A stretch of 64,000 nucleotides of DNA from Candidatus Methanomethylophilaceae archaeon (GCA_944320495.1 CALUHR010000005.1:192001-256000), one strand, 5' to 3'. Shown: positions 1 to 64,000, counted from the first letter of the stretch. Notes: generated by a model not told the origin, from the sequence alone. Translations and numbers: made by a program.

Positions 1-155
1 CCACGTACAACTCCCAGGGTGCGGACGTCACCACCTTCACCGTCGAGGTGCCAGAGGCACCCGGCGGGGAGGGCGACGGCGATCTCTTGCTCTGGGTCGC
101 CATCGGGCTGTTGGTTTTACTGATAGTCGTCGTGGTGCTAGCGAGGATTCTATGA
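1..155 (+). CDS. 3' end (partial) of a membrane-anchored surface protein, Ig/PKD-like strand followed by a C-terminal TM helix
   Basis: Frame from base 3 reads TYNSQGADVTTFTVEVPEAPGGEGDGDLLLWVAIGLLVLLIVVVVLARIL-TGA(153-155). Same anchor style as other surface proteins in the window. Confidence 0.8.
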   Translation, partial: TYNSQGADVTTFTVEVPEAPGGEGDGDLLLWVAIGLLVLLIVVVVLARIL

Positions 156-159
156 GAAC

Positions 160-189
160 CCCGGGGGCGGGCGGATGCCCGCCCCCGGG
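160..189 (+). terminator. GC-rich hairpin after the upstream gene
   Basis: cccgggggcgggc-ggat-gcccgcccccggg, a perfect 13-bp stem 5 nt after the TGA. Confidence 0.6.
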
Positions 190-214
190 AAACCCTTTGA
201 CCGTTCGTTCTCGG

Positions 215-255
215 ATGTTAACATTTGTTGATATGATGTATACAAATGTTAACAT
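215..255. repeat. Perfect 14-bp AT-rich inverted repeat with 13-bp spacer
   Basis: ATGTTAACATTTGT-tgatatgatgtat-ACAAATGTTAACAT; each arm contains the palindrome ATGTTAACAT. Confidence 0.85.
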
Positions 256-421
256 TGGAACGGGACGAGAGATCATGTGCCAGCGCCCTGACGGGCGCCG
301 GCATGGGAACATGGTTGTTGATCCCTTCGTTCCAACCGCCGGACCGCGTCCGGCGGAGGATCGACCGCCCGGCCCCTCGGGCATGAAGCCCGGGGCCGGA
401 CGGCGTCAGCCGTCCCGCCCC

Positions 422-1306
422 TCGCTCGGACGGATCATAGTACTTGGAAGTTCTGCGAAGTCTCGTCATATACTCATACGCCAGATCGGATTCGGGATTC
501 GATGGAATCTTATCAATCAAGTCCTGATTAATCTGGTCTGAACTTCTGGCCATAAGATATTCCAAGGCATAGTGGGTAGCTATACAATTGATCGCAATTG
601 GATTCATCAGACCCGCGGTTTGACAGAACTCTCTTTGGAAGATCTCTGCGTCTTCCAGATTGAATATTGTGAATAATCCCCTCGGGGACAGTGGAAAGAT
701 GTAGCCGTCCAAACACATGCCGCGCTCCCGATACTCCTTGCAATGTTTGTGAATGTCGAACAGGTTGCATGGCATCACGGGGAAATCGCAGGTTATTAGC
801 GCATCATGTTCCCACGATACGAACGAACACCCGTAGCTCTCCATCGGTTTCCCCGCGAGTTCCTTCTCAGAGCTGTCTATGGCCATCTGTCTCAGACGGC
901 GGTTTGTCTCACAGATCCTGCTCTCATATTCCGGCCCGAACCTGTCGTCGTAGAATATGTCGGTGGCGGGGGATCTCGCAATCATTAGACTCGCGTATCT
1001 CAGAACCTTGCGCCATTGCTCCCAGTCCGTGATGGTTCCCTAAAGCATACCATCTATCATCGGTTCGCATTCACGCTCTATCCTCGCGATGTCTTTCTCG
1101 GTGAAGTTGATTGGACGATCCTTGGATTCATAGAGTTTCTCTATGAACAACACATTGTTCGGCGACGTGAGGAATCCTCTCCTTCTGCGTGTGTTGTAGA
1201 AGTAGACCTTTCCCTTCGCAGATCCGTCCTAGCTGGCGAATCTCTCCATGTACGCCTGAGGGATGAAGTGGGATCTCCGTGTGGGATTCTGGGCGTTCGT
1301 AGGCAT
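422..1306 (-). CDS. DUF4238-like protein (~294 aa) with two in-frame TAG codons and a proposed CGA stop
   Basis: The N-terminus RRSHFIPQAYMERF resembles the DUF4238 HYVPQxYLxxF motif. TAGs at 1229-1231 and 1040-1042 are in frame with ORF 218..985. First in-frame CGA is at 422-424, where lower-GC coding sequence ends, followed by hairpin ggacggc-gtca-gccgtcc (398-415). TTTATA box ~27 nt upstream of the ATG. Confidence 0.7.
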
Positions 1307-1411
1307 ATCCTCATCCACCGGGGGTCGCAGGTATAAAGGAATCGACCGACTGGTTCTGGCAGCATATTCCGAGAATCCGTTCGAACGAAGTTCAACGGAG
1401 CAATTGTCTCT

Positions 1412-4400
1412 ATGATATCTTCGAATATGAACAAAAATGGGGAGAAAACCAAGCTCCTCGCAGCGGTCGCCGTGCTCGCCATGATCATGTGCGTGTTCGC
1501 GGTCGCCGCCATCCCGTCGTCCGATGCGGTCACAGGAGACGAATTCCTGGACGGTGCCGATGCAAACGGCGTTATCACCCTCGACGCGGATGTCACCGTA
1601 AGTTCCGTTATCACCGTGACCGGAGCACTTACCATCAACGGTAACGGACACACCATCTCCGCCGCCAAGGACTTTAGCACCTCTGGCCAGGGAGACAAGA
1701 ACCTCATAAGCATCGAATACAACGAGGACAAAGTCGTTCTCAACGATGTCACCTTCGCCGGTGCCTACGGAGTCAACGTCTACGATGCCGATGACGTCAC
1801 CCTGAACAACGTCACCGTCAAGGACAGCACCGGTGCCGGACTGACCGTCGGAACCAACTCCGTCGCCACCGTCAACGAGTCCTTCTTCAGCAACAACGGC
1901 TGGGGAGACATCAACGTCGACAAAGCTTCCACCCTGAACATCGACGACGCCACCGAGCTGACCAGCAACTTCCAGATCTGGTCCGAGGACGTCACCGCCG
2001 AAGAGAACCCCAGCGTCATCAACGCCGACTCCTACGTCGGCTACAGGTGGGACAAGACCGGCAACGATGCCGTCACCGACGGACGCGCCTACTTCAAGAA
2101 CGGCAACGTCCCTGCTGACATCACCCTCACCAGCCAGACCCTGACCGTCGCGGAGGGCCAGGCCCTCTTCATCGTCGGAGGCTCCACCGGAGTGATCCCC
2201 ACCGGAATCACCAACAACGGAATCGTCTACACCATCCCTGAGGGAACCACCGGTACCGTCAGCGGCAACACCGTCAGCATCTCCGGCACTGCAGCTATCG
2301 CGGACCTCGATGCCACCGGAGCCGACTGGAACGGCCTCTTCGACGGTGTCACCTCCAGCTGGTCCATCGTCGGAATCGCCGTCACCCTGAGCGACTACGA
2401 GTCCGTCGACCAGACCAACCCCGCGATGAACGACGCCTACCCCAAGGAGGACGGCACCGAGTCTTTCCCCAACGACAAGAAGACCACGACCCTCACCGGT
2501 AACGAGACCGGAAGCTACTGGTTCCTCATCCCCACCGACGGATCCCCTGTCAGTGTCACCTTCAACGGAAAGGACACCAACGCGGACCTCGCTCTGACCT
2601 TCAACTTCGACGTCGAGAACAAGGCCACCGCCACCGATGCCGCCTCCGCTAACGATGCTCTGAAAGACGAGAACATCAGCGAGGTCTCCATCGACGGATC
2701 CAAACTGACCAGCAGCACCACCCCCATTGTGGTCCCTGCCGACAAGACCCTCGTCATCGAGAACTCCACCGCTGACAGCGAGTTCGCCATCAACACCGTC
2801 GACGGCGACAAGACCCAGAGCGCCAAATTCGATGGAGTCACTGGAACCATCATCATCACCAAGGGATCCGTCGTGATGTACAGCCCTGACATGGTCAAGG
2901 ACGGAGTCGTCACCGTCGGAGCCGGCACCACTCTCAGGATCGCCGACGGAACCTCCATCGACGGAGTCAAGTTCGTCGGAACCGACGACAAATCCATCGT
3001 CGAGGTCCCCAGGAGCGCGACCGTCACCTTCGCCAACACCGTCACCTTCGACGACGTCGCCGTCAACCTGAAGGGAACCGTCAACGGCGGAACCATCCAG
3101 GTCGAGGAGGGCGCCACCGTCACCATCGACGGAACCGTCACCAGCGCCTTCGTCAACAATGGCGGAAAGATCGTCAACAACGCCCCGTCCCTCGGAGACA
3201 TCGAGCTCAAGGATGGAACCACCGTCATCGACCAGACCTCCATCAACGGAGCCCTCGGCCAGGACATCACCGTCACCGGCGAGGTCACCGTCGCCAAGGG
3301 AGGACACATCATCTCCAACGGAACCCTGACCATCGCCGAGGGTGCCAAGCTCATCCTCGAGGAGGGATCCTACCTCGCCATCGGAGCCACCGGAATGGTC
3401 GTCAACAACGGAACCATCGAGGTCCAGGCCGGAACCGAGGGCAACGAGACCTTCCGCTACGGCGGAAGCAGCATGGACGTCAGCACCACTGGAGCCATCG
3501 ACTTCCAGGGCGCCAACTCCTTCGCCAACGCCTTTAACGGCAGCACCGGAACCGACATCTCCGTCGCCGGAACCGTCACCGTCGGTGAGGAGGCCGCCGC
3601 CAACATCACCGGTATGACCGTCGCCGCCGGAGGCAACCTGTACGTCTACGGCAACGCCACCGGAGCCATCGTCAACAACGGAACCGTCACCGTCGACACC
3701 GAGGTCGGTTGCGACCTCGATGTCAACATGGGCAACGGGGCCGTTCTGAACCTCGTCAATGCCGTCGGAACCGTCGACGTCGCCGATGACAAGATGTCCT
3801 TCAAGTACCAGAACGCCGACAAGCCCATCAAGAACCCCGCCGAGGTCACCTTCCAGGACGTCTCCGGAATCACCGTCACCGACTCCCTGACCACCAAGGT
3901 CGAGAAGGACACCGCCACCGCGGATCCCGATGATACCACCAGGAACGGATACGGCAAGCTCTGCATCTCCGGAGCCGCCGGCATCGCCTCCAACGTCGAT
4001 GACACTCTCGATAAGGCCACCATCACCGTCGTCAGAGGAACCGTCAACGTCGCCGAGGACGCCACCCTCTCCTTCGTGAAGGGCTACACCCTCGCCGTCA
4101 ACGGAACCCTGGCCGTCGCCGGATCCGTCGACGCCACCGCCGAGGAGACTTCCATCAACGGCACCGGAACCGTGGACGTCACCGGAAAGATTACCTCCGA
4201 CGATACCATCGCCACCACCACCGTCAACGCCGCCTGGTACACCAGCGGAACCGGAAAGGACGCCGTCAACGTCTACACCTCCCTGGCCACCGCCATCGCC
4301 GACGGAGCCGACGACATCGATCTCCTGGGCAACTACAAGATCGCCGAGAACATCACCATCCCCGCCAACGTGAAGGTCAACGCCAACAGCGCCATCACCG

Positions 4401-6394
4401 TCACCGTCGACAAGGATGTCACCGTGACCGTCGCCTTCGACGCCGCCACCAACGCCAGCGGAAAGCTGATCAACAGCTCGAAGGTCATCACCGTCAACGG
4501 AACCCTGATCGCCCAGAACTACGACAAGAGCGGAGTCGTCCAGAACAACGTCGTCTGCGACGTCATCGTCGACAACGAGCCCGAGAAGAAGTTCACCAGC
4601 ATCTACGTCGCCCTCGACGAGGCCGTGGCCGGAGATGTCATCAACATCACCAAGACCGGAACCCTGACCATCACCGAGGACATCGTCATCCCCGAGGACG
4701 TCAAGCTCGTCGTCCCCAGCGACTGCGACGTGGTCGTCGACGACGGTGTCACCGTGACCGTCAATGGAACCTACGAGGGAGAGGGTGCCTACGACATGAC
4801 CAACCCCGAGGATGAGAAGGACCCCGCCCAGACCATCGTCAACGGCATGTTCAAGGTGTCCAACACCTGGACCGACGAGATGAGGCAGTACGTCTCCGGA
4901 GCCTACTACTCCTACGACGGCTTCTACGTCATCTCCCCGCTGTCCGTCCTCTCCACCGTCATGGCCGACGTCGAGAGCGAGGACGCCAAGATCTACGGAA
5001 CCGTCACCGAGGGAGCCGTCACCCTGGCCTCCGAGGACGATTTCGCCGTCGTCATGACCGCGAACGCCAACCTCACCGTGACCGACCTCACCCTCGACGG
5101 TGTCAAGTTCGACTTCGCCGCCGACAAGTCCAGGGTCAACGGAACCGTCACCACCGCCGACGGAAGCTTCGCCCTGACCAACGTCATGGGAGGAGTCATC
5201 ACCGCCGAGACCGCCATCGACGGGGACAACGAGACCGTCACCGCCACCCTCACCGGCAACGTCGTGAAGACCAACCTCACCGTCGGAAACGAGAAGGTTG
5301 ATGACATCAAGGCCTCCGTGACCGTCTCCGGCACCGCCGACATCGCCGACGCCACCGCCTTCGGAGTTCCCATGACCGTCTCCAAGGACGCCGTCGTTGG
5401 AGTCGACTCCGTCAAGTTCGACGAGACCGTCACCGTCGAGGGAACCCTCAACGTCAAGAGCACCGCGGTCGAGTTCACCACCATGAACGTCACCGGAACC
5501 GTCGCAGTCGCCGACAAGGCCGCCGCCTCCGTCGACACCCTGTACCTCGGCGTCTCCAAGAACGCCACCACCAACGTCATCACCGACCTCGGTGCCGGAA
5601 CCATCTCCAACGTGACCGTCGACAGGGTCGCCTACGTCGGACCCTCCGCCTCCTTCACCGCGATCGATGCCCAGGCCGAGGACGGAACCAACGCCCTCAA
5701 GGTCACCGCCTACTACGCCGAGGACGCCCTCGTCGTGACCGCCTACGCCAACGGCACTGCGGCCACCCCTGTCAAGATCTCCGAGATCACCGCCTCCGTC
5801 CCCAACGCCTACCTCTACGGATGGGCCGACGAGGAGGGCAAGGTCATCGGCGAGAAGTACGACAACGTCGAGTACGATCCCGTCGTCGGAGCCGAGGACT
5901 GCGCCAGGGTCGATGCGAAGGTCAACTACGACATCTACGTCATCAACCTCAGGGCCGACCAGAACGCCATCAGCAGCATCTCCGTCGATGGAAACCTGAT
6001 GGAGTTCGGAATGATCCAGGGCGGAGTAGCCACCGATGGAAACGCTGGATGGTACTACGGCTACACCATCACCGTCGCCGCTGGCAGCCACACCATCCAG
6101 TACCAGCTGGCCAACGGTTACTCCGGAGAGGGTGTCCTGACCGTCAACGGAACCCAGCAGAGCGGACTGACCTTCACCACCGAGGGCAACCCGACTGGCA
6201 CCGACAAGACTGTCACCTACAACCTCCAGCTCACCGGCTTCGAGAAGTCCGGCTATGTGCCCGACTCCCCCGACACCGGAGACAGCGACTCCGGCGAGAC
6301 CGGAATGACGATCACCGACTACCTGCTGATCGTCCTCGTCGTCCTCATCATCGTCATGGCCATCATCGTGGCCATGAGGCTCATGAGGAGCTGA
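1412..6394 (+). CDS. Giant adhesin/S-layer-like protein 1 (1660 aa, subfamily A)
   Basis: Signal peptide after MISSNMNK, T/V/D/G-rich beta-rich body, C-terminal TM MTITDYLLIVLVVLIIVMAIIVAMRLMRS, strong NNC codon bias. Confidence 0.9.
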   Translation: MISSNMNKNGEKTKLLAAVAVLAMIMCVFAVAAIPSSDAVTGDEFLDGADANGVITLDADVTVSSVITVTGALTINGNGHTISAAKDFSTSGQGDKNLISIEYNEDKVVLNDVTFAGAYGVNVYDADDVTLNNVTVKDSTGAGLTVGTNSVATVNESFFSNNGWGDINVDKASTLNIDDATELTSNFQIWSEDVTAEENPSVINADSYVGYRWDKTGNDAVTDGRAYFKNGNVPADITLTSQTLTVAEGQALFIVGGSTGVIPTGITNNGIVYTIPEGTTGTVSGNTVSISGTAAIADLDATGADWNGLFDGVTSSWSIVGIAVTLSDYESVDQTNPAMNDAYPKEDGTESFPNDKKTTTLTGNETGSYWFLIPTDGSPVSVTFNGKDTNADLALTFNFDVENKATATDAASANDALKDENISEVSIDGSKLTSSTTPIVVPADKTLVIENSTADSEFAINTVDGDKTQSAKFDGVTGTIIITKGSVVMYSPDMVKDGVVTVGAGTTLRIADGTSIDGVKFVGTDDKSIVEVPRSATVTFANTVTFDDVAVNLKGTVNGGTIQVEEGATVTIDGTVTSAFVNNGGKIVNNAPSLGDIELKDGTTVIDQTSINGALGQDITVTGEVTVAKGGHIISNGTLTIAEGAKLILEEGSYLAIGATGMVVNNGTIEVQAGTEGNETFRYGGSSMDVSTTGAIDFQGANSFANAFNGSTGTDISVAGTVTVGEEAAANITGMTVAAGGNLYVYGNATGAIVNNGTVTVDTEVGCDLDVNMGNGAVLNLVNAVGTVDVADDKMSFKYQNADKPIKNPAEVTFQDVSGITVTDSLTTKVEKDTATADPDDTTRNGYGKLCISGAAGIASNVDDTLDKATITVVRGTVNVAEDATLSFVKGYTLAVNGTLAVAGSVDATAEETSINGTGTVDVTGKITSDDTIATTTVNAAWYTSGTGKDAVNVYTSLATAIADGADDIDLLGNYKIAENITIPANVKVNANSAITVTVDKDVTVTVAFDAATNASGKLINSSKVITVNGTLIAQNYDKSGVVQNNVVCDVIVDNEPEKKFTSIYVALDEAVAGDVINITKTGTLTITEDIVIPEDVKLVVPSDCDVVVDDGVTVTVNGTYEGEGAYDMTNPEDEKDPAQTIVNGMFKVSNTWTDEMRQYVSGAYYSYDGFYVISPLSVLSTVMADVESEDAKIYGTVTEGAVTLASEDDFAVVMTANANLTVTDLTLDGVKFDFAADKSRVNGTVTTADGSFALTNVMGGVITAETAIDGDNETVTATLTGNVVKTNLTVGNEKVDDIKASVTVSGTADIADATAFGVPMTVSKDAVVGVDSVKFDETVTVEGTLNVKSTAVEFTTMNVTGTVAVADKAAASVDTLYLGVSKNATTNVITDLGAGTISNVTVDRVAYVGPSASFTAIDAQAEDGTNALKVTAYYAEDALVVTAYANGTAATPVKISEITASVPNAYLYGWADEEGKVIGEKYDNVEYDPVVGAEDCARVDAKVNYDIYVINLRADQNAISSISVDGNLMEFGMIQGGVATDGNAGWYYGYTITVAAGSHTIQYQLANGYSGEGVLTVNGTQQSGLTFTTEGNPTGTDKTVTYNLQLTGFEKSGYVPDSPDTGDSDSGETGMTITDYLLIVLVVLIIVMAIIVAMRLMRS

Positions 6395-6808
6395 AGGTAA
6401 GATTCCGTCCCTCAACCTGAAAAGCAAACCCCGAGGGGTCCGTAAGGACCTCTCCCAAGGGATGGGTCGAAGGCAGACGAATCATCTAGTAACCTGAACA
6501 GGAAACCCCGACGGCCAGGTAGGGCCGTCCCGCCGATCCGGTGCCGCCAAAGGCGGCACCCGGTCGGCACAGCATTCTCCAGATCCGTCGGATCGGACTT
6601 ATCATCGTTCTCCCGAACAATCCGTTCGGATCTCTCATTGAGGAAGAATGATCCCTCCGCTCTCGGAGGGTCGGCAGTCCTTTCGGGACCGCCTGTGTTT
6701 GCTCTTCAGGTGATTGGTTACTTTCTCTTGCTATTGCTCCCCATCCCTTTGGAGGGGTCCTCACGGACCCCTCGGGGTTTCCTCTTCAGGTTGTTGGATG
6801 GTTCGCGA
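6395..6808. repeat. Structured convergent spacer (copy 1), an array of stem-loops
   Basis: Closely similar to 20182-20588. Contains the aacctgaaNagSaaacccc motif and GNRA-capped hairpins on both strands. Confidence 0.85.
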
Positions 6809-9800
6809 TCAGCTCCTCATCAGGCGCATGGCCACGATGATGGCCATGACGATGATGAGGACGACGAGGACGATCAGCAGGTAGTCGGTGATCGTCATTC
6901 CGGTCTCGCCGGAGTCGCTGTCTCCGGTGTCGGGGGAGTCGGGCACGTAGCCGGACTTCTCGAAGCCGGAGAGCTGGAGGTTGTAGACCTTGACAGGGGA
7001 GTCGTATCCGGAAACGGTGGACAGCTCGCCCTCGGCGGTGAATGTCAGTCCGGACTGCTGGACTCCGTCGACGCTCAGGACGCCCTGTCCGGAGTATCCG
7101 TTGGCCAGCTGGTAGCTGATGGTGTGAGCTCCGGCCTCGACGACTGCGGTGTAGCCGTAGAAGAAGCTGCCCTTTCCATCGCTGATCATTCCGAACTGCA
7201 TGATGTTGTTGTCGATGCTGATGCTGGAGATGGCGTTCTGGTCGGCCCTGAGGTTGATGACGTAGACGTCATACTTGACCTGGGCATAGACCGCGGCCAC
7301 CTGTCCGACGCTCTTCTCGTTGGCGGAGACTCCGTCGGCATCGAGCCAGGTTCCGTTGAACCAGGCGTTCTCGACGGGGACGGCGGCCTTGATGGTGTTC
7401 TCGAGGGTGTCTCCATCGATACCGAGAGCGGGCTCGCTGGTGTAGGCGGTGATCCAGAGGGCATCCTCGACGTAGTACTCGGTGCTGTTGTCGAACACAT
7501 CCTCGTCGACGGCCACAGTGGTTCCGGCGGCGGCGTAGATGGTGTCGCATCCGACGGTTCCGTTGACGGCGGCGGAGGTGCTGGTGACGGCGAACTCGTC
7601 GTCGAGACCGACGTACATGATTCCGTTGACGATTCTCAGGTTTCCGTTGGAGTTGGTTCCATCGGCAGCGGCGACGGTGACGGTTCCGGCGACGAAGAGG
7701 TCGTCGACGGTCAGGGTCTGTCCACCGGCGACGGTGACGGTTCCGGCGACGAACAGCTTTCCGTCGATGGTGCCGTAGGTGGCGGAGACGGAGGTGCTGG
7801 TCGCGGGGACGGTCAGAGTGGCATCCGCATCGACGGTGACGTCGCCTGTGACGGCGGCGGTAGCGGCGTTGGCGCTGCTGACGATGACGGTTCCGGCGGT
7901 GACGTTGAGGGTGGCCAGGTTCTTCTTGGGAGTGTTCTTGTCGTTCGGGTCGGGGTAGTTGACGTTGGCTCCGGTGATGACGAGTCCGTTCTCGGAGTCG
8001 ACGTCGAGTCCCTTGACCTTGACGGCCTCGATGCTGGCGTCGCCGACGGTGACGGTTCCGCTGAAGACACCGGCAGCGTCGGAGTCCAGCTGGGCCCCGT
8101 TGGCGAGGACCAGGGAGGTCAGGGTGACCTCGGCCTTGGCACCGATCTTGATGACGGCGCAGTCGTCGGTGGCGGTGAAGGTGGTGTCTCCCTCGGAGAC
8201 GGTTCCGTAGATGACGATCTCGTCGAGGACGGTCGGGAGGACCGCGGCGGAGACAGCGGTGGCGACGGTGGTGACGTAGTTGTAGTCGCCGTCGGTGAAG
8301 TAGGCTCCGGAGATGTAGGATCCGTCGTCCAGGGTGTTCTTGGTGGTGTTGGACGCCTCGTAGACGACGTCCTCCATGACCTTCAGGGTGCCGGTGACGA
8401 CGATGGCGGAGGCCTCCTTGTCCTTCTCGGTGGTGGCCTTGGTGGCGAACTGCTTCTCGGCGACAATGCCCTCGTTGGGCCTGTCGGACTGGAGGGTTCC
8501 GGCGACGGTCAGGGTGACTCCGTTGTTGATGACGATCTGGGAGTCGAACGGGATGACCAGGGTGACGCCCTCCTTGACGGTGAAGTCCTTGTCGAGGGTG
8601 ACCTTGGTGGCGTCGAAGACGTTGATGACGTCTCCGGCGGTGGCCTCGGTCATGGCGGTGTAGATGTTGGTGTACTTTGCCCATCCGTTCTTGGTGAGCT
8701 TTCCGTCGGCGTCGACCTGCTTGGAGACGACGTCGGCCTTGATGGTGGTCTCGGCGGCCTTCAGGTCGGTCCTGTCGTTGAAGTACAGGGTTCCGAGGAC
8801 GTTGGTGGTTCCGACCCTGCCGTAGGTGGCACCGGCGGCGATGTCCAGCCTGACGTCCCTGTTGTCCTCGTCTCCGATGTTCAGGACGGTCTTGTCGTCC
8901 TTGAAGGTGAAGTCGATGGCGGGGACGGTGGCGGAGGTCAGGACGGTGTTGGTTCCGTAGAGGGTGATCTCGTCGATGGTGCTGTCCGCGTTGGCGGCTG
9001 CGATGGCCTCGTCGACGGTGACGTAGTTGCTGTAGTCGTCGGCGTTGACCTTGGTGACGTAGTGCGCGGCGTTGACGGTTCCGCCGATCTCGAACTCGGG
9101 CATGTAGATGTGTCCGGCGTCGGCGAGGGTGATGGTTCCGGTGCTGACGATTCCGTTGTTCAGAGCCTTGTCGGAGACAGGGACGTATCCGGAGACGGTC
9201 AGCTTGGCGGTGCTGCTGATGGTGAGCTTGGTGTTCTCCCCGATGGAGAGGGCGGCGGCATCGTTCTCGGCAGCGGAGACGGTGAAGTTGCCCTGTCCGA
9301 GCTCAACGACGGCAGCAGGGTTTCCATTGTCATTGCCATTGTAGTCGGCGGCGATGCTTCCGGAGATGTCCATGACGTTGGTGATCTTGTCGACGCCGTC
9401 CACCTTCTTGACGCTGAAGTTCTCGACGACCGTCAGGCCGGAGATGGTGGAGTTGGTTCCGGAGGAGCTGAATCCGAGACCGTTGGCGGTGACGCCGGCG
9501 GTGGATCCGATGGTCTGTTCGTCCTTCACGATGAGGCTGGCATCGGTGATGTAGAGGTATCCCCCGGTTGCCATGGCGAGTTTCTGAACCTCGACGGAGG
9601 CTCCGTCGGCCATCATGTTGATGTTGATGTTCACCTGGCAGGGGAGAAGGTTGCTGTCGATGTCGGTGGGCTCGGAGTCGATGATGATGGCTCCGCTGTT
9701 GTCGAAGGTGACCTTGTCCTTGAACTGGCCCTCGAGGGTCAGGGTGACGTCCTGGGCGACGACGATCTTGGCTCCGTCAACCTGGTAGAGGCTGGAGGAG

Positions 9801-13304: not shown

Positions 13305-13597
13305 GATACTGAAAGGAACCGCTGAAGTTTATATTTGTTTCAGTCAACTGAAAACTTATCAGAGATTTGATAGTTGTTTCAGTTGAATGAAATAAAATGT
13401 TTGGGAATCGGACATGATGCATGATATCCCGTCCCTGATTCCATGGGCGGATCCGTTCGGGACGGTCGATGCCCGTATGTGCGGATCCCGACTCACCAGA
13501 GGATGCATTCCTCGGTGGGCCAGGTGAAATTGGGATTCGCGGCCTCGATATTGAATTGAGCAGCCTCACGCGCGATACCGCTCAACTCAAATCATAA

Positions 13598-31755: not shown

Positions 31756-31765
31756 CTGGGTTACA

Positions 31766-54915: not shown

Positions 54916-55866
54916 ATGGATCTCTTGGGACTGTATCCTTTCATCGCCATCGGATGCGCCATATTCGGACTATTCGTGGGCAGCTGGTGCAAACGCCGCA
55001 CCCAGGTGATAGTCCCCTTCAACGATCCCCTCTCGTGGACGTTGCTCCTGATGGTGTTCGTCATCCTGCTGATGCCGGACCTCAAGCCCGAATGGGCGTT
55101 CATCGACCCCTACGACCTCAACCACGACGCCTGCCTGATCGGCTTCTTCGTCATGTACATCTACGGATACTGCAAGGAGGAGCTCCTGATGGAGTTCGTC
55201 TCCGCCCATGACATCTTCAAGCTCAAGCAGGAGATCAAGCCCATCGCCTACTACTTCAACGACGAGGCCCAGCTCTGCTGGCAGCCGCAGTCCATGAGGT
55301 ACGTCCTCAAGAGGCTGATCTTCAACGTCGACAATCCCCTGGACTACGACTTCAGCAACATCAACCGCCGCCGCTTCGTCGAGTTCCAGGGTAAGTTCCT
55401 GAAGATGTCCGCCTATGTGGTGGACACCGCCAAGATGACCGAGAAGGTGGAGTACGTCTACAAGTGGCGTCTCAAGTTCAAGGTCATCAAGCTCCACTTC
55501 GATCCCTCTCCGGTGAACTCCTTCGACATGTACGACTTCTACGTCGAGGGGAAGATCGCCAACGAGTACGTCCAGAACTACCAGCGTCTCAAGGTCCAGA
55601 ACGCCAACTCCTCGGCGGACATGAGGATGGCCAGGATCCTCGGGGTCGTGGACCTCATGGAGGGACTCACTAGCATGACACCCGACGCCGTCGTCATGGA
55701 CCGCCTCATATCCGACATGGACGCCAGGAACGGCGTCACCACCGAGGGCGACGTCCGCCGCGCGGACAGGTCCGGCAAGCAGAGCGCGAAGGCCAGGAAT
55801 CGCGTCCAGCGCATGGCCAGGGAGATGCAGTCCGAGGAGGTGAACGACGATGCCTCTGATGAGCGA
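54916..55866 (+). CDS. Membrane protein with N-terminal TMs and charged helical C-terminus (316 aa), proposed CGA stop
   Basis: GAAGGTGA SD; codon bias collapses after EEVNDDASDE; first in-frame CGA at 55864-55866, overlapping the next gene's start. Confidence 0.75.
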
Positions 55867-57121: not shown

Positions 57122-57486
57122 GCAACCTGTTCATCCAGGTCACCCCGGACGCCCTCAACGCCTACAACGACCTGAGGTACTACTACTCCGTCGGCGACTA
57201 CAACGCCACCTACCTCCGCGTCTTCGAGACCTATCTCAGCCCCCTGTTCAAGGAGGACTTCCTCGTGAAGGACAAGCTCTACGAGGAGGTCTCCCGCCTC
57301 TATCCCCTGCCGGACGAGGACGACGACTGCCAGTACATCTCCGCCAGGGCCTACCTGCTCTACATGAGGGCGTACGAGAAGATCATGCGCCAGAAGGGCA
57401 TCATCGGCGGATGGGACGACGGCGAGGCCGTGGCCGAGCAGACCGACATGAGGGTCATCGACCCGATGGTGGAGTACAGGAGGCGA
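57118..57486 (+). CDS. Hypothetical protein (122 aa), proposed CGA stop overlapping the next ATG
   Basis: First in-frame CGA at 57484-57486 in CGATG. Confidence 0.75.
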
Positions 57487-57782
57487 TGCCGATGGACTAC
57501 CACACCAACATGGTCGGATACGTCGGCAGGCTCCGCATCGTCAGCCCCATAAGGCTCGACATGTCCGTCGACGGCAACGGCCTCTGCCGTGTCCTCGAAC
57601 CCGACATGCGCCTTGACGGCATCGGCACCTGCCCGGACGAGGCCCTCAACGAGTTCATGGGCGAGGTCCTCTTCGCCTGGGACGCCTTCGTTAAGGATGA
57701 TATCGGCAAGTTGGATGACTCTGCCAAAGAACTCCGCTCGTGGCTTCTCTCCCACTTCGAGGAGATCGGGGGTGAGAGCCGA
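57486..57782 (+). CDS. HicB-like fold protein (98 aa), proposed CGA stop overlapping the next ATG
   Basis: VSPIRLDM...LDGIGTCPDEALNEFMGEVLFAWDAF; first in-frame CGA at 57780-57782 in CGATG. Confidence 0.7.
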
Positions 57783-59488
57783 TGGAGGACGTGGAGGCGT
57801 GGGAATGGCACGAGCAGCACCGTCTCGGAAGGAAGATCATCGGCGACATCTACGTCGAGGACGCCTTCGATCCCGATTCCGATGGGCCGGAGGACGACGA
57901 CATCGACTTCGAGGATGACGTCCTCGGATTCGATCCCGAAACAGCCGAGCAGCAGCAGGACGAGGTACCTGTCCCCGAGTGGATCAACTCCGCCATCGAC
58001 GTGGACAAGCTCATGTCGGACATCTTCCGCCCCGGCACCAACCACGTCACCGACGGGATGAGGGGCGGAGGCAAGACCCATCAGGCCGTCGCCTACACCG
58101 AATACATGGTGGAGGGCCGCTTCAAGGGGATGCCACGCGTCATCATGCTCACCAACATCATCTTCGTCAAGAGGGTGAGCTTCGAGGGCGACCTCGAGGA
58201 TCAGTTCGTCATGGAGGACCCGCCCGGCGTCCACCACGTCACCAGCATGGAGCAGATGTTCCGCATACAGACGAAGATGATGAGGCGCTACGGCAGGGAG
58301 GGCGTGATGTTCATGCTCGTGCTCGACGAGGCGCAGAACTTCCTGTTGGCGGACGAGTACCAGCAGGACACCTCCATCGCCTTCATCAAGTTCTACGGGA
58401 CCACCAGGAAGTTCAACACCTGCATCTGGCTCCTGACCCCTTCGATCAACAACCTCCCTCCCAGGGCCAGGAACTTCCTCGATGCGGACCCCGCCGGCTA
58501 CGTCTCCTGCCAGTGGAGGAAGAACAAGCAGCTCGCCGCCCAGTACATCGCGGCCAACCACATAGAGAACGCCGATGTCCGCGAGTTCACCACCATGAAG
58601 ATGGGTGCCAACATGGCCCCCGTCTGGTTCAGGATAACCACGACACCGTGGACGCGCCCCCTTGAGGAGTTGGGAATAGGCGAGTACGGCTACGACCATC
58701 TCGCCAACGCCGACTTCAAGGTCAGCATCGACGACAACAACCCCTTCGACTTCAAGGCGTTCATGGAGGCGACCTCGGACATGCCCTCCTACCGCATGGC
58801 GACGGTCATGCAGGAGTTCTTCGACAGGATGGACGGCAAGTCCGCCGACCCGGACGCGCCCCCCGAGGACGACCCCAAGGCCGAGAGGACGGCAGAGATC
58901 CTCAGGATGAGGGAAATCGGCCTGACCTTCGATCAGATAGAGTTCGTCACGGGGGTGGCGGCATCGACCTGCCGCTATTGGATCAACAGATACGGCTCCG
59001 CAAATCCGGCCGCACAAGCGGCCGACAGTCCCAAGGGGGCGGGGGGCGGAGACCCCGCCCAACCCAAGCGCGGGAACCGCTCTAGGAATACTCCTAGAGT
59101 GGGTTCCCGCGCGGGTAAGAAGGGGCTGAAAACACCTCCGAAAAGGCTGAAGAGGGACTCTGCTCTAGAAAAGCTAGAGTTGCTGAAAAATGACACAGCC
59201 AGATCTTTGAGCAGCAGCAACGCAACCACCCCGTTTTCGCGCCCTTATATGTATAATCCTAGAGAGGGGGAGGAGGACGGGGGGTCTCGCGGAAAGTTGC
59301 CGATTGACCCCCAACCGGTTGGCGGACGGTTGGCAGCCGAGACACCCCTAGAGGGGGAGGATTCGGCTGACCTAAACCATGATGAGGATGAATCGTTCGA
59401 CGACGGGGTATGGGGCTACGGCGAAGATGGGGGATCCGATGACGGGGAACCCTACGACGTCGGGGAGGAATACGAAGAGGCGGAGCGA
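57782..59488 (+). CDS. P-loop NTPase (Zot/virus-extrusion-like) with a downstream HTH and a disordered tail
   Basis: Walker A GMRGGGKT, Walker B LVLDEAQ, RKF...WLLTP, HTH-like IGLTFDQIEFVTGVAASTCRYW. The only in-frame CGA (59486-59488) lies 6 codons before the TGA at 59506. Confidence 0.8.
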
Positions 59489-59509
59489 TCTCCGCGGGAA
59501 GAGTGAAAC

Positions 59510-60610
59510 ATGAGGGATGGGAAGATGAGCAACAGCAAACGGAAGGATGACGACCCGCTCTCCTACGGGAGCGTGATGGCCGTGTGGATGGGGAAGTCCT
59601 ACCGCATCCCCGTCGATGCGGACGGATACGTGCCCATGGAGGCCCTGGTCATGCGCTATCAGCAGATGGGGAACAACGGAAGGGACAAGGGAAGGGACTC
59701 GGACATAGTGTTCCCCTCCCATGTCAGGCCGAAGGAGATCGTCAGATGGTGGGCGGACCCGTCCTCGTGCGACATCGAGGGCATCGACACCCGCGACTCC
59801 AAGGTGTACGACGTCTCCGGCCTGAAGGGAAGGCGCATGAAGGCCGCCCAGAGGAAGATCGGGATAGTCACCCCTTCCGCCGACGAACAGAGACGCATAC
59901 GCAGGATCCTCTCGGAGGCGTTCACCGCCGCCGAGCTGGACGCCATGACGAGGGAGGGGTCCTTCGTCATCCGCACCCGCCCGAACTGCGGGAGCGTGAT
60001 GGGATACTACCTCAGGAAGGCCGACGGCCAGGAGATCCCCCTCATAACCTTGGAGGAGGGCGTGTCCCCGGACACCGTCGTCCACGAGACCGTCCACCAC
60101 GCAAGGACGTGCAGGAGGTCGGGCAAGTACACCAGGACGGCGTTCCCCATGAAGGGCGGAAGGCTGGACGAGGCGTACTACGGACTGAGCCAGCAGCAGC
60201 GCGACATGATCAACGACGCCGAGGAGACGGAGACGACAGCCGAGGCGACAGCGAGGACCAAGAGGGACCCCTGCCCCACCGGGTATTGGGACAATGTCGG
60301 CGGAAGGGAGGCGTACATCCGCGACAAGACCGCCCTCGCAAGGTCGTGCGGCGGAGGGGACTGCACCCTGAAGGGGGCCAAGGCCGTCAGGACCGTGGAG
60401 AAGCAGTACGACAAGCTGGACATCGCGATGGCGTCTATCATGGCTGACGTCCCCGCGAAGGAGTCCGCCGCGAGGATCGCCAAGGGTTCCGCGTCCGGTA
60501 GGCCGAAGACGAAGACGGCAGCAACAGCGAAATCCAAGAGCCAGACTCCGAAGAAGACCACGAAGGCAAAGAGCCAGACATCCAAAACCAAGGGGAAAGG
60601 GACGAGGCGA
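59510..60610 (+). CDS. Zincin-like metallopeptidase (HExxH) with a Lys/Thr/Ser-rich tail, proposed CGA stop
   Basis: TVVHETVHH motif; the only in-frame CGA (60608-60610) is followed by a pyrimidine tract; TGA at 60658. Confidence 0.7.
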
Positions 60611-60959: not shown

Positions 60960-61640
60960 ATGAGATCCATGAGGGTGACACTCCCCCAGGCGCTCCGCAG
61001 GCAGCGCCCCTGGGGTTTCTCCGATCCCTCCGTGGTCATGGTGGACCTCACCGGCCACGTGTCCCTCGAATCCCCCGTCGGCTCCCCCTACGGGGTCGGC
61101 GACGAGCTCTCCGACGGGAGGTTCGACTGCGGGATGTTCTCCAAGATGGGTTCCCTCCACGAGAGGGTCGCCTACCTCCACGGCTGTGGGTACTCCGCCG
61201 TCCCCGCGGGCGACGGGTTCGCCGTCCGCTTCGAGGACGACGCCCCGTCCGTCGATTCCGAGGATGAAGTCCGCACCGTAGTCTACGAGTGGGAGACCCG
61301 CAGGCAGAGGCTGCCCACGGAGTCGATCTCCGGATGCCCGTTCAAACTCTGCCCAGATGCCAGGGTCGCCTACGCCATCGTGGAGTACGAGGGGGACCAT
61401 CCGCACATGTCCCTGGCCGCAGAGTACGTCGCGTCGATGGACGCGGTGGACGGGAGGAACTCCTACTCCCCGTCCGAGATGTCCGACGCGATAGATTCCG
61501 TCAGGGCGGTGTCCGATGCCGACTCCCATTTCATGGCCACCGCCGCGATGGACGTGGCCGACGCGTCCGAGAGGATCCTCGACGAGACCAAGGGCGACTA
61601 CCTCGCGAAGCTCTCCGAGAAGATGCGCAGATTCGTGTGA
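60960..61640 (+). CDS. Hypothetical protein (226 aa)
   Basis: Strong coding codon bias; TGA stop. Confidence 0.7.
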   Translation: MRSMRVTLPQALRRQRPWGFSDPSVVMVDLTGHVSLESPVGSPYGVGDELSDGRFDCGMFSKMGSLHERVAYLHGCGYSAVPAGDGFAVRFEDDAPSVDSEDEVRTVVYEWETRRQRLPTESISGCPFKLCPDARVAYAIVEYEGDHPHMSLAAEYVASMDAVDGRNSYSPSEMSDAIDSVRAVSDADSHFMATAAMDVADASERILDETKGDYLAKLSEKMRRFV

Positions 61641-62007
61641 GTCTGGCACATCGCCCTTCCCAAAACCTCTTGACCTTCTCCAAACGCTTGAACGGTTATC
61701 CCGCCCCCGTATCCCGAACTTCTCTAGAAGGCATGCCTCCTGCCCTTCGGCGATTGCGGATCAGTTGACCGAACACGTTAAAGACCCGTTCGGAGGCAGA
61801 TGCGGCGATCTCCGGATCGGAACTCTCCGAACCTGAGATCGGAGTGATAGAATGCTCGGATGGAGAGGTAAGAGAAAGCCCACCCCGGAAAACGGAAGGA
61901 CAGACGCCCAATCAAACAACATACGTCCACCCTTCCCCAAAGCATCCAGGGACGGCAGATTCTCGAAAGCCGCATGGGGACTTAATGATTCCGTTCACAG
62001 GTTTATC

Positions 62008-62313
62008 ATGGGGTCTTCGCTTAGTGACGTAATCCAGAATGATGACGTCCTATGCAAGGAGCTGGAAAACATGATCTATGGGTGGAGAACTCTTGATGAA
62101 CTGGTCATCCAGCTCATTTTCTTCCTCAGAGGGCTGGGACCCAGCAACATGTGTCGCGATGTCACATTGAACGCACTCCGCATCATGGCCGATCAGAGTT
62201 TTATCGAATTGGACGAGAGTGGATTGTATGAAACCCTCACCCAACTGGACCATCATCTCATAACCGAATCGGAGGCCTTGGATCTCATCCCGAGGTTCAT
62301 CAGGATCCTCTGA
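62008..62313 (+). CDS. Hypothetical protein (101 aa)
   Basis: Protein-like helical sequence; start chosen at MGSSLSD. Confidence 0.6.
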   Translation: MGSSLSDVIQNDDVLCKELENMIYGWRTLDELVIQLIFFLRGLGPSNMCRDVTLNALRIMADQSFIELDESGLYETLTQLDHHLITESEALDLIPRFIRIL

Positions 62314-62357
62314 AACACTTGACGACGGGACGACCCCACCCGTCCCGTCACCAGAGT

Positions 62358-62711
62358 TCAGAGTTCGTTCCCGTGAAGAACCCAATCTACATGTCTGCGG
62401 ATTTCGTCGATGCGTGCGAACACGCGATGTCTCTCGCGGAACCGTCTCTGGCGTTCCACCCTTCTGGAATACTCTATCCAGTCACACGGACTGAAAGGGC
62501 TGTAACTGCGTCTGCCCTCTTCGAAGTCGCGGATTTCGTACTGGTACACCGCCGCCTCCCTGGCCGAATCCCTGTACCATTTCGGGACTTCCCAGACATA
62601 GGGGGTCCACATCATGTACCCACGTTTCTGGTAGAATCTCATCCTCGGACAGGAACAGCGATGGCTGCATAGCCTATGCAGTATCGCCCCGATGGAATTG
62701 CCATCCTCCAT
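62358..62711 (-). CDS. Hypothetical Arg/Trp-rich protein (117 aa)
   Basis: ORF downstream of the minus-strand promoter-like motif at about 62851; about 20 Arg codons, none of them CGA. Confidence 0.5.
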   Translation of the reverse strand: MEDGNSIGAILHRLCSHRCSCPRMRFYQKRGYMMWTPYVWEVPKWYRDSAREAAVYQYEIRDFEEGRRSYSPFSPCDWIEYSRRVERQRRFRERHRVFARIDEIRRHVDWVLHGNEL

Positions 62712-63160
62712 GATTGAATCAGCCGACGGCATCCTATATAACGGTCCGCCGCGGCCGGCGGACACCTCCGATCTTCGACGTCTGGCTATGTCTCCCGGAG
62801 CGGCCTTCGGGACCCCTATCGGACGGGTTCCGACGCCCTTTCGGGGACGGTTCATAAACGGTTCCCATGACATCATGTACGCAGGCCCCGCCCCCGTCTT
62901 CAATGGGTCCGCCGCTCCGCCGCTTCCGGATCGGCGGTTCGGCGGGATCCCGCGGGAATCCAGCGCGTACGCCGTATAAGAAGGTCTTCGGAAGACGGCA
63001 GAAGCGGGACGGCGAGCAAATGTATCGAAATCTCTCCGCCCCGATGCGATGATAGGACGTCCGGTTATAAGGATTGGGACATCCCAAGTTCCAGAGTTGA
63101 CGCATCTCGCCATGACCCAAGAGTTGTTTTAGGACGTTGTCAATCCAACTCGGGGATTGG

Positions 63161-63640
63161 ATGCGCAGAATATCGTTGATTCGCAGAAGGAAGGCGGTGT
63201 CGGAATCCAGACGCTATGATGCCACCACGAGGAGCTGCGTGAACAGGATCATCAGGGACAACATGGTCATCAACGGGTTCCCAGAGGGTGACCCGGAGGT
63301 GGACGGCCCGAGATTCGTTCGCTACGAGGGTGCCATACAGGGGCTGTGCGATGCCCTGATGATGGACTCCGATCCGGTGGCCAGGGCGGCGGTATGCCTG
63401 GATTACATCCTGAACATGCATCCGTTCGTCGATGGGAACAAGCGCACCGGGCTGGCAGTCGCCTCCAGATTCATAACGTCGGCGCACCGCAGACTTCCGC
63501 TCGATGATGAGGACACCTATCTCTTCGTCAGGCGGATAGCGGCCGAAGGGCTGACGAGATACGAGATCGAGGCTTGGCTGCGCGAGAACACGGTCGGCAA
63601 TCCTTCAGCTTCGAGAAGACGTACTGGAAATGGTCCATGA
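63161..63640 (+). CDS. Fic/Doc family protein
   Basis: HPFVDGNKRTG Fic/Doc catalytic motif. Confidence 0.88.
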   Translation: MRRISLIRRRKAVSESRRYDATTRSCVNRIIRDNMVINGFPEGDPEVDGPRFVRYEGAIQGLCDALMMDSDPVARAAVCLDYILNMHPFVDGNKRTGLAVASRFITSAHRRLPLDDEDTYLFVRRIAAEGLTRYEIEAWLRENTVGNPSASRRRTGNGP

Positions 63641-64000
63641 TCTCATAGAGCCTTCCGTCTCCCCCTTCGAGGAGAGGGTCCAGTCTGGAAGCGTCCACCG
63701 ACATGTCCCTTCTGCGGATGCTGCGACTCTCTCCGTTCATCGCATTTCGATAGACGGGATCCGTATTTCTCTTTGACGGGACCGCACCGCTTGTGCGGTC
63801 CCAATCCAAAACACTAGAGCGAGCGGAATAAATACCATGACCTCCCAATTACCACCGAGGCCCTCGGCGGCACCGGGACCCGACTAAACGCCCCCCACCT
63901 ACCGGATACGTGGAGAGGGGTGCGGGTCTGCCATCGGACCGGAGATCAAAACCGGAGCATCCGGATGAACAGCAACGACCAGCAGCCGTGTATGACGCTG

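Follow-up and report, generated by a model that had tools for sequence, protein, structure and literature searches.

Genome sequence analysis confirms CGA, an arginine codon elsewhere, as the apparent end of about one quarter of the genes in this chicken-gut methanogen, a Pyl-encoding member of the Methanomethylophilaceae from the genus of Ca. Methanoprimaticola. TAG appears to be a sense codon in the same genome, presumably specifying pyrrolysine. We consider it likely that these are two separate, nested changes of the code, with TGA, CGA and rarely TAA as terminators, TAG as sense, and competition between the release factor aRF1 and a tRNA at CGA. No published description of CGA as a stop codon in this lineage was found in the literature.

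Stop codons in the 64-kb window

Genes in the window (the whole analysed stretch of 64,000 nucleotides) and in the genome were called with a self-trained, home-made gene caller that counted CGA as a stop; with GC3 in the genome near 0.85 (about 0.85), its reading frames are readily distinguished. The raw output for the window comprised 34 genes, ending in 23 TGA, 9 CGA, one TAA (12096-12098, minus strand) and one TAG (31753-31755). A DUF4238-like gene, missed by the caller because of its foreign codon usage, was added and the TAG was re-read, which gave a final tally of 23 TGA, 11 CGA (including 31766-31768, which closes a weakly scoring gene), one TAA and no TAG. This recount agrees with the preliminary description, which had listed more than 20 TGA, 10 CGA, one TAA and at most one TAG. 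In-frame CGA is absent from the 17,714 codons of the window, in which CGG occurs 32, CGT 52 and AGA 62 times. The features are as follows.

422..1306, minus strand: DUF4238-like gene of 294 codons; coding 1306..425, CGA stop as codon 295 (424-422)
1427..30483, no strand specified: five giant paralogous genes (1,523-1,680 codons apiece), all TGA-ended, with no in-frame CGA
12096..13304, minus strand: AAA_14/DUF4143 ATPase gene; TAA stop at 12096..12098, the sole TAA in the window according to the gene calls
30786..31235, plus strand: SocA/Panacea-domain gene; CGA stop at 31233..31235, next standard stop 58 codons on
31309..31818, plus strand: gene with CGA stop at 31816..31818 (verified codon), its true end beyond an in-frame TAG
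31753..31755, plus strand: in-frame TAG of the preceding entry, read through; homologue P0005 (67% identity) has M there
31766..32227, minus strand: uncertain gene, weak call (0.19 score per codon) with CGA at 31766..31768; 53-base convergent overlap with the preceding gene
42631..43200, plus strand: gene with CGA stop at 43198..43200; next standard stop 326 codons on, within the convergent gene
43204..45501, minus strand: gene of 765 aa with a weak N6-methylase match; CGA stop at 43204..43206, marked by a drop in coding score
54916..55866, plus strand: gene with CGA stop at 55864..55866; 8-base overlap with the next gene's ATG (55859)
57118..57486, plus strand: gene with CGA stop at 57484..57486; CGATG stop-start overlap with the gene at 57486-57782
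57486..57782, plus strand: gene with CGA stop at 57780..57782; CGATG overlap with the gene at 57782-59488
57782..59488, plus strand: Zot-like ATPase gene; CGA stop at 59486..59488
59510..60610, plus strand: gene with CGA stop at 60608..60610

The TAG at 31753-31755 was rejected as a terminator, as the homology to P0005 runs 18 residues past it, to the CGA at 31816-31818. For the gene at 43204-45501, the coding score is 0.38 upstream of the CGA and -0.19 across the 199-codon downstream tail. The gene at 57118-57486 has the highest codon bias among the CGA-ended genes of the genome.

CGA as a terminator genome-wide

Counting CGA as a stop raised the coding density of the genome from 0.824 to 0.869, with 412 of 1,680 genes ending in CGA; the stop tabulation, proposed earlier as a check, gives 71% TGA, 24.5% CGA, 3% TAA and about 1% TAG (most TAGs being read through). 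When ORFs are instead called genome-wide under table 11, 333 of the 486 in-frame CGAs fall in the last decile of the ORF; in each of deciles 2-7 there are 1-15 CGA versus 74-91 CGG, and the sequence downstream of such ORF-end CGAs is non-coding. In 242 genes GC3 drops from 0.81-0.91 to 0.48-0.62 precisely at the first CGA, and the step in GC3 and codon score is the same as that at TGA (1,153 genes). Together with the absence of in-frame CGA from the window, these trends far exceed what chance would give. CGG still aligns with arginine in this genome.

The ends of orthologous genes agree with this pattern. Of 56 same-genus pairs for CGA-ended genes, 51 have the orthologue's standard stop at most two codons away, and in 29 of these the two ends align exactly; in the TGA control, 357 of 382 lie within two codons. 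CGA and TGA replace one another in both directions between species, and the second MtmB copy has its CGA end two residues past the end of the Pfam profile. This DNA-level pattern, the orthologous stop positions, and, as described below, the occurrence of TAG within conserved domains and the states of the tRNA and aRF1 genes make up the observed part of the case.

We attach practically no weight to the explanation that base-calling or assembly errors, frameshifts or pseudogenes yield apparent CGA ends. The genome is a 14-contig metagenome bin, and any frameshift in it would soon meet a CGA because off-frame sequence is CGA-rich; but the coding signal stops precisely at the first CGA and not codons earlier, orthologues stop at the same residue, and CGA ends recur in the assemblies of other species, complete genomes included. 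Moreover, two further chicken-gut samples have identical contigs over CGA stops, e.g. over the one at 55864..55866, which together with the other assemblies argues against an assembly error.

Editing of mRNA from C to U, which would turn CGA into UGA under a standard code, is very improbable. CGA is indeed a single C-to-U change from UGA, and the present data are from DNA; however, CGA avoidance is frame-specific, with 34 CGA per 1,000 codons in the five other frames of long genes versus about 0.1 in frame, and an editing enzyme would therefore have to sense the reading frame. The in-frame CGA of the aRF1 gene, which aligns with a conserved arginine, is also at odds with editing, and we know of no C-to-U editing of this kind in archaea.

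TAG as a sense codon

The claim that TAG no longer serves as a terminator held up in the window, where no gene ends in it, and in the genome, where it ends 19 of 1,680 genes. At least 12 of these 19 run on into strongly coding sequence, which argues against TAG as a common true terminator, and the remaining ones have a TGA or CGA 0-20 codons downstream. Under table 11 there are 69 apparent TAG stops, reduced to 19 when CGA counts as a stop. TAG falls within full-length matches to the Pfam domains of MtmB (two copies), MtbB, TatD and an SF1 helicase, and in an aldo-keto reductase (AKR-ferredoxin) gene the ferredoxin domain sits downstream of the TAG. The genome encodes PylS (260.8 bits, above the curated cut-off; C9:67854-68522), a pylT with a CUA anticodon loop about 200 bases upstream of pylS, and an ATP-grasp, PylC-like ORF downstream of pylS.

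Both features had been reported to coincide in the DUF4238-like gene, and the codons were verified here: TAG is in frame at codon 26 (1231-1229) and codon 89 (1042-1040), and the gene ends in CGA. Its PF14022 match (64 bits) spans the two TAGs. In the homologue P0002 (294 aa, 89% identity) these sites are occupied by Q and K, and the protein ends with the same final residue.

In Pyl-encoding methanogens TAG has been described as ambiguous, i.e. read as stop or Pyl, with experiments performed in Methanosarcina acetivorans (2025 PNAS paper, PMC12626013).

Distribution of the two traits in the family

Relatives were sampled at 20-200 kb each and placed on a tree from one gene. TAG ends are rare in every sampled genome and genus of the Methanomethylophilaceae, and CGA is near-absent within genes in five sampled genera, among them that of G053; avoidance of the codon extends over most of the family. 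Clear CGA stops were found only in the Ca. Methanoprimaticola genus, at 1-31% of genes per species; of 13 other assemblies of the genus sampled, three of them complete, all but one have CGA gene ends. At aligned codons CGA occurs at 0-0.3 per 1,000 in 13 sampled genomes of the genus versus 1.4-3.6 in other families. In Methanomethylophilus (G071, G073) CGA occurs just a few codons ahead of a standard stop, which leaves its status there ambiguous. Since few genes end in TAG in any sampled genome of the family, its loss as a stop is probably older than the CGA stops, and the two traits appear to have arisen at different depths of the tree, nested rather than simultaneously.

This distribution bears on the proposal of the preliminary description that the traits may be linked through an altered aRF1, taken here as one linked swap in which a change in aRF1 would have ended UAG recognition and created CGA recognition, the loss of one stop causing the gain of the other. 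Sense TAG and stop CGA do occur together in this genome, and 58 of the 62 genomes of the genus carry PylS, among them those of all CGA-rich species sampled; none of these species lacked it. Green-algal mitochondria, which combine sense UAG with stop UCA and a mutated release factor, offer a precedent (PMC6821328). However, TAG is depleted in all sampled genera of the family, whereas clear CGA stops occur in one; in the sampled sequence of Methanoplasma-type (g14) and g19 genomes no gene ends in TAG, yet CGA serves there as a sense codon at about 1 per 1,000 codons; and G053 (99% complete) has no internal CGA, although no PylS was found in it.

The release factor aRF1

The genome has a single aRF1 gene, whose NIKS and YxCxxxF motifs are identical to those of relatives that read CGA as arginine; the GTx motif is altered (GRSTEL) solely in this genome and its nearest relative. 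The family has its own N-domain substitutions (M65 right after NIKS, T81, V91, I92, C94 and R99), which might be cited in favor of a linked swap, but no N-domain residue specific to the CGA-rich clade was found in the comparison of aRF1 across the sampled genomes. The suggestion that CGA is read by an altered aRF1 is not borne out at the known codon-reading motifs, though determinants of another, as yet unrecognized kind may play a part. To our knowledge, no eRF1-type factor has been described that reads C in the first codon position.

The aRF1 gene itself keeps a single in-frame CGA, which all 32 genomes of the genus examined (32 of 32) have as codon 78. It is embedded in 12 different synonymous contexts with variable flanking synonymous sites, is always followed by C, and aligns with a conserved arginine. 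In other genera the aRF1 gene has a single CGA at codon 11, 25, 50 or 326, and in most of those with one aRF1 CGA the codon occurs at no more than 0.4 per 1,000. Codon 78 must be decoded as arginine and a UCG tRNA is encoded; therefore CGA would not be a pure stop. The conserved in-frame CGA points to self-regulation and implies an interaction of aRF1 with CGA, which favors the earlier idea that aRF1 may read this codon and counts in favor of a linked swap. A comparable arrangement is known from bacterial prfB (release factor 2), which is autoregulated through an in-frame UGA. Both have, in the factor's own gene, a conserved in-frame codon at which the factor terminates or would terminate; in prfB, however, a +1 frameshift passes the stop, whereas here plain arginine decoding would do so.

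Taken with the tRNA change reported below, the nesting and the unchanged NIKS and YxCxxxF motifs of aRF1 make a linked swap unlikely: its two halves, the vacated TAG and the CGA stop, stand, and the causal link between them is not supported.

tRNA-Arg(UCG) and the context of CGA stops

tRNA-Arg(UCG) is retained in this genome and in every genome of the genus where it was sought. In 11 genomes of the genus its anticodon arm shows a 31-39 mismatch, and three have C33 in place of U33, while six other genera and Methanomethylophilus G071 have the canonical form. As judged from the gene sequences, the change that tracks the genus is damage to the anticodon arm of tRNA-Arg(UCG), not a change in aRF1.

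A weak tRNA might also leave CGA unassigned, so that the ribosome stalls at an unread codon and the peptide is released through a rescue pathway instead of specific recognition by aRF1. The damaged anticodon arm in each genome of the genus examined, the unchanged NIKS and YxCxxxF motifs, and the avoidance of CGA in strongly biased, probably highly expressed genes (36% of stops in the lowest codon-bias quartile, 9% in the highest) are in line with this. On the other hand, about one quarter of genes rely on a CGA end without any enrichment of back-up stops close by, the next standard stop lying a median of 24.5 codons after CGA versus 28 after TGA; CGATG coupling junctions serve like TGATG; there is a specific preference for U at +4 (T in 56% of cases versus a 23% background); and the conserved CGA of the aRF1 gene would be difficult to account for unless aRF1 acts there. 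We know of no archaeal rescue factor that releases peptidyl-tRNA at sense-codon stalls, and we regard this explanation as decidedly improbable.

Proposed course and mechanism

In the course that we favor, that of two separate and nested changes, TAG would have been vacated early; its rarity as a stop family-wide is consistent with code 34. CGA would then have almost dropped out of the reading frames of most genera (codon disappearance), and in this genus it may have returned at gene ends via T-to-C changes of TGA stops, more commonly in GC-richer species and weakly expressed genes. The share of CGA among stops does climb with GC content (rho 0.75 in 14 genomes of the genus, which are related and so not independent).

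With CGA in the A site, aRF1 would compete with a tRNA-Arg(UCG) that has been kept but weakened, by a broken 31-39 pair or C33; release would therefore prevail at CGA, above all with a following U. Codon 78 of aRF1 could act as a feedback sensor, at which plentiful aRF1 would terminate its own synthesis, while under scarce aRF1 the tRNA would read arginine. We infer CGA recognition by aRF1 itself, lowered decoding by the tRNA, and the feedback loop.

Comparison with known codes

Arginine codons at gene ends are also known from vertebrate mitochondria (NCBI table 2), where AGA and AGG concern only two human genes, in an organelle with a dedicated release-factor paralogue; here hundreds of genes and a single aRF1 gene are involved. 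As in the sense-to-stop reassignments of tables 2, 22 and 23, the codon is absent from conserved internal positions and found at the stops of orthologues; unlike in them, the cognate tRNA is not lost and the known codon-reading residues lack a clade-specific change.

Code 34, in which all TAG is pyrrolysine, has been predicted for eight genera including Methanomethylophilus, with proteomics for Methanomethylophilus alvi and Methanococcoides burtonii (Kivenson et al., 2024, bioRxiv 10.1101/2024.09.30.615893). The present genome resembles these in pylT and pylS, near-zero TAG terminators, TAG within conserved domains of genes that have no part in methylamine use, and membership in the family of M. 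alvi, but a fourth codon, CGA, takes one quarter of its stops; CGA has zero occurrences in that paper, which took TGA and TAA only as stops.

The mitochondria of Scenedesmus/Tetradesmus and other Sphaeropleales (NCBI table 22) read UAG as sense and UCA as stop (Zihala and Elias, 2019, PMC6821328). There, too, a stop-to-sense change of UAG is joined with a sense-to-stop change of another codon, which vanished ahead of its reassignment (codon capture). That system belongs to an organelle of a few dozen genes, with a bacterial-type mtRF1a mutated at codon-reading residues and no cognate tRNA, whereas the present one belongs to a free-living archaeon of about 1,700 genes, with an eRF1-type aRF1 and a cognate tRNA that is retained but altered; its new stop, CGA, differs from UGA at the first base.

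Two archaeal assemblies from hydrothermal vents, in which CGG encodes Trp, also lack CGA in conserved domains; the possibility of CGA as a stop was raised for them with no test of stop use (Melnykov, 2026, bioRxiv 10.64898/2026.04.02.715157). They differ in lineage and habitat, have about 50% GC, and have CGG reassigned and no tRNA(UCG) found, whereas here CGG aligns with arginine and the CGA stops are backed by orthologous gene ends.

Stop codon usage in G000

Genes of G000, the Methanomethylophilaceae genome that contains the window at C5:192001-256000 (1.77 Mb in 14 contigs, 61% GC, 90.6% complete), were called with a self-trained caller, which was run with the stop codons of the standard prokaryotic code (table 11), and then with CGA added as a stop. 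GC3 is ~0.85 within the true reading frames of this genome, and the frames are thus readily told apart; the sequencing runs that contain the window sequence originate from chicken-gut and bird metagenomes. The table 11 run produced 1,518 genes, terminated by TGA (1,330), TAA (119), and TAG (69). With CGA counted as a stop, 1,680 genes were called, ending in TGA (1,195), CGA (412), TAA (54), and TAG (19), and coding density increased from 0.824 to 0.869. The window genes of the second run end in 23 TGA, 9 CGA, one TAA (12096), and one TAG (31753-31755), and together with a DUF4238-like gene they reproduce the window tally of the preliminary description. The CGA gene ends and the near-absence of TAG terminators noted there were also confirmed by the genome-wide tallies. 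Among the 17,714 called codons of the window, there was no in-frame CGA, compared to 32 CGG, 52 CGT, and 62 AGA codons.

Position of CGA and the coding signal around it

In the table 11 ORFs of G000, 333 of the 486 in-frame CGAs fall within the last tenth of the ORF, and deciles 2-7 contain only 1-15 CGAs each, versus 74-91 CGG and 145-161 CGT codons. The codon score was +0.24 upstream of CGA and -0.22 downstream. When 242 genes were aligned on their first in-frame CGA, GC3 dropped in a one-codon step (0.81-0.91 before, 0.48-0.62 after) that could not be distinguished from the one seen at TGA (1,153 genes). Frameshifts or random read-on as the origin of the CGA ends were rejected, as either would shift the step to a point tens of codons upstream of the first CGA. 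The frequency of the codon is ~0.1 per 1,000 in frame but 34 per 1,000 across the five remaining frames, and this frame-specific avoidance counts against mRNA editing. A reassignment of CGG, as in vent archaea, was ruled out because CGG aligns mainly with Arg and Lys.

About 13 in-frame CGAs have a coding signal on both sides, including those in C1:21187-23502, C9:51496-54099, and C13:459658-461139 of G000. These may represent neighboring genes in the same frame or programmed read-through giving two protein forms.

To compare gene ends between species, 26 other genomes of the order were sampled at 20-200 kb each and aligned to the G000 proteins. In 56 comparisons of CGA-ended G000 genes with orthologs from the same genus (the one that includes Ca. 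Methanoprimaticola), the ortholog carries a standard stop at exactly the same position 29 times and no more than two codons away 51 times; the corresponding values for the TGA control are 293 and 357 of 382. Exchange between CGA and TGA was seen in both directions between species, and CGA stops overlap the next start codon as CGATG, in parallel to TGATG. The pattern of CGA ends is common to assemblies of different species, some of them complete. In addition, the CGA stops of the window are identical in contigs of two further samples (one study).

Properties of the CGA stops

The base following a CGA stop is T in 56% of cases (background 23%, after TGA 29%) and A in only 7%. CGA accounts for 36% of stops in the quartile of genes with the lowest codon bias and for 9% in the quartile with the highest, and among 14 genomes of the genus, which are not independent of one another, its share climbs with GC content (rho 0.75). 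Back-up stops are no closer after CGA than after TGA. Taken together, these properties are consistent with CGA being a somewhat weaker stop that depends on its context and spreads through T-to-C drift. As a separate observation, TCG follows 14% of the G000 CGA stops, forming the palindrome CGATCG, which may stem from convergent stops that abut, from a termination context, or from a methylation motif.

Window genes with both internal TAG and a CGA end

The DUF4238-like gene was described earlier as carrying both internal TAGs and a CGA end:

1306..425, minus strand: DUF4238-like ORF in which codons 26 and 89 are TAG and codon 295 is CGA

Its PF14022 match (641-1273, minus strand) contains both TAGs. 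In a metagenomic homolog of 294 residues (89% identity), Q and K occupy the two TAG positions, and the protein stops exactly at the residue preceding the G000 CGA, supporting the earlier description. Under table 11, the G000 protein is reduced to a 255-residue fragment carrying a G/R/P-rich tail of 68 residues. The TAG at 31753-31755, previously considered ambiguous, is not a stop: a homolog with 67% identity has Met at this position and is still alignable 18 residues past it, up to the CGA at 31816-31818.

TAG as a sense codon

The pylS match in G000 exceeds the curated cut-off, and directly upstream there is a tRNA with a CUA anticodon. This pylT was found by motif and by reading of the sequence; the Rfam search gave no pylT match. 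A reading of pylS as a CGA-ended gene joined in frame to its downstream neighbor was rejected, the ORF being an off-frame reading of pylS into a PylC-like gene. The full-length matches to MtmB (two copies), MtbB, TatD, and an SF1 helicase all span TAG, and in an aldo-keto reductase TAG precedes the ferredoxin domain. In one MtmB copy, a TAG at the pyrrolysine position is combined with a CGA stop two residues past the end of the Pfam profile. TAG is not common as a terminator in G000: only 19 of the 1,680 genes end in it, and at least 12 of these run on into strongly coding sequence, the others reaching TGA or CGA within 0-20 codons.

Code 34, in which all TAGs are read as pyrrolysine, has been predicted for eight genera including Methanomethylophilus, with proteomic tests in Methanomethylophilus alvi and Methanococcoides burtonii (10.1101/2024.09.30.615893). 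The use of TAG in G000, within domains and at few gene ends, fits this code. Ambiguous decoding of TAG in methanogens encoding pyrrolysine is emphasized by another study, which experimented on Methanosarcina acetivorans and reported a median of 4.1% TAG stops for pyrrolysine-positive Methanomethylophilaceae (PMC12626013). In G000, most such TAG stops are artifacts of ignoring CGA.

Release factor and tRNA-Arg(UCG)

G000 has a single aRF1 gene, in which the NIKS and YxCxxxF motifs are unchanged. The GTx loop reads GRSTEL in G000 and its nearest relative only, and GRGTEL in other CGA-rich species. No residue of the aRF1 N-domain is specific to the CGA-rich clade, and only C142 is specific to the genus; nine residues of this domain are specific to the family (A10, M18, M46, M65, T81, V91, I92, C94, and R99).

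The only tRNA found with an anticodon pairing to CGA, tRNA-Arg(UCG), is altered in every examined genome of the genus. Eleven genomes have a mismatch in place of the 31-39 pair (C.A, U.C or A.A), three carry C33 instead of the near-universal U33, and the G000 tRNA also has U32 and C38. A canonical anticodon arm was found in six other genera and in the Methanomethylophilus genome G071. The diverged copies in three relatives (G119, G125, and G130) were missed by BLAST and found with covariance model R2.

The aRF1 genes themselves contain in-frame CGA:

C2:85933-87165 of G000: aRF1 gene with a single in-frame CGA
L016-L045 and L112-L131 of relatives: aRF1 genes with a single in-frame CGA

Within the genus, a CGA at codon 78, a conserved Arg, is kept in 32 of 32 genes and is always followed by C, while the neighboring synonymous sites vary. 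The other genera have one aRF1 CGA at codon 11, 25, 50 or 326, although most of them use the codon very rarely, and one species also has CGA at the end of its aRF1 gene. The recurrence of a single CGA in the aRF1 genes of most genera suggests that aRF1 interacts with CGA throughout the family, including genera where CGA stops are not demonstrated.

Distribution across the family

Internal CGA occurs at 0-0.3 per 1,000 aligned codons in 13 sampled genomes of the genus, at 0-0.4 in Methanomethylophilus, Methanogranum, and two further genera, at ~1 in Methanoplasma and one other genus, and at 1.4-3.6 in two other families. The share of genes ending in CGA is 11-31% in the clade around G000 and 1-14% in the remainder of the genus, a graded rather than uniform usage. 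The few CGA ends of Methanomethylophilus lie mostly 0-11 codons ahead of a standard stop, which leaves the status of CGA there ambiguous; they show no +4 U bias. TAG ends are rare in all family genomes sampled (0-13% of table 11 calls) and account for 10-26% in the other families. The distribution of these three characters therefore gives the order TAG loss, CGA disappearance, and gain of CGA stops. A long-tail classifier applied to 40-60 kb samples was too noisy for ranking the species.

Of the 62 genomes of the genus, 58 have PylS, as do most of the relatives sampled. PylS was not found in G053, a 99% complete genome of another genus, though this genome has no internal CGA, nor in G130 and G177 of the genus of G000, both of which nevertheless lack TAG stops and have a few CGA ends. 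Thus, pyrrolysine is present but is not tightly coupled to the disappearance of CGA and the gain of CGA stops.

The preliminary description had proposed a swap, with TAG vacated to pyrrolysine and CGA recruited as a stop through an altered aRF1. The results support this proposal in part: both code changes are real. They are, however, nested, no mechanistic link between them emerged, and the lesion specific to the lineage affects the tRNA and not the recognizable aRF1 motifs.

Other features of the window

1427-30483: five giant paralogous genes (29 kb), mostly in alternating orientation
30786-31818: SocA/Panacea-domain gene (possible antitoxin), then a small membrane-like protein with a read-through TAG
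34431-47737: lower-GC island (0.56-0.59) with weak codon bias
48303-61640: tRNA-Asp (48304-48376), then tightly coupled small genes without a Pfam match and a Zot-like ATPase

The giant genes (1,523-1,680 codons) all end in TGA, are shadowed by long antisense ORFs, and include one weak right-handed beta-helix match; they probably encode surface or adhesin-like proteins. A 99-nt 'tRNA-Met' called by ARAGORN at 3669-3767 lies inside a giant gene, has no Rfam support, and is probably a false positive. The gene pair at 30786-31818 may be a toxin-antitoxin system. The island, likely acquired DNA, encodes three Listeria-Bacteroides (Flg_new) repeat proteins, a 634-aa protein without a Pfam match, and a 765-aa protein with a weak N6-DNA-methylase match. 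The last element looks like an integrated virus or plasmid adjoining the tRNA, and a variant at ~94% identity is present in an independent metagenome study. Five of its ~12 genes end in CGA, indicating that the element shares the code of its host.

Proposed mechanism and significance

We give an even chance to a joint reading in which aRF1 reads CGA as well as UGA, a tunable contest between aRF1 and the tRNA decides the outcome, and the family forms a living codon-capture series. Under this proposal, the aRF1 of Methanomethylophilaceae would recognize CGA besides UGA, and the meaning of CGA would be set by a deliberately weakened tRNA-Arg(UCG) together with a preference for U after the codon. 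The CGA inside the aRF1 gene would act as a sensor that keeps factor levels steady. Living members of the family would represent every stage of codon capture, with CGA passing from sense to avoided, to a rare stop, and to a quarter of all stops, and the change would have taken place on a background of TAG already ceded to pyrrolysine.

To our knowledge, no sense-to-stop change has been established outside organelles, and this one, if true, would be the first in a cellular genome. With ~400 CGA-terminated genes, graded living intermediates, and the sequenced, strain-named Ca. Methanoprimaticola sp. MG2, codon capture would become directly testable, and the first-base specificity of eRF1-type release factors would also be put to the test. 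Public table 11 annotations are wrong here: they add false C-terminal tails to about a quarter of proteins, mask downstream genes (coding density 0.82 vs 0.87), and inflate TAG stops (69 vs 19). The PylRS/tRNA-Pyl pairs of Methanomethylophilaceae are tools for genetic-code expansion, which gives applied interest to a host that reads TAG as sense and has a fourth stop codon.

Comparison with known systems

Full-text literature searches returned no description of CGA stops in this lineage. The nearest statement concerns two vent archaea with CGG read as Trp, for which a CGA stop was raised as a mere possibility (10.64898/2026.04.02.715157). The closest analog of a swap is the sphaeroplealean mitochondrial code, in which UAG became sense and UCA became a stop (PMC6821328). 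These mitochondria have a mutated release factor and lack the tRNA (PMC6821328), whereas in G000 the NIKS and YxCxxxF motifs of the release factor are unchanged and the tRNA is present in altered form.
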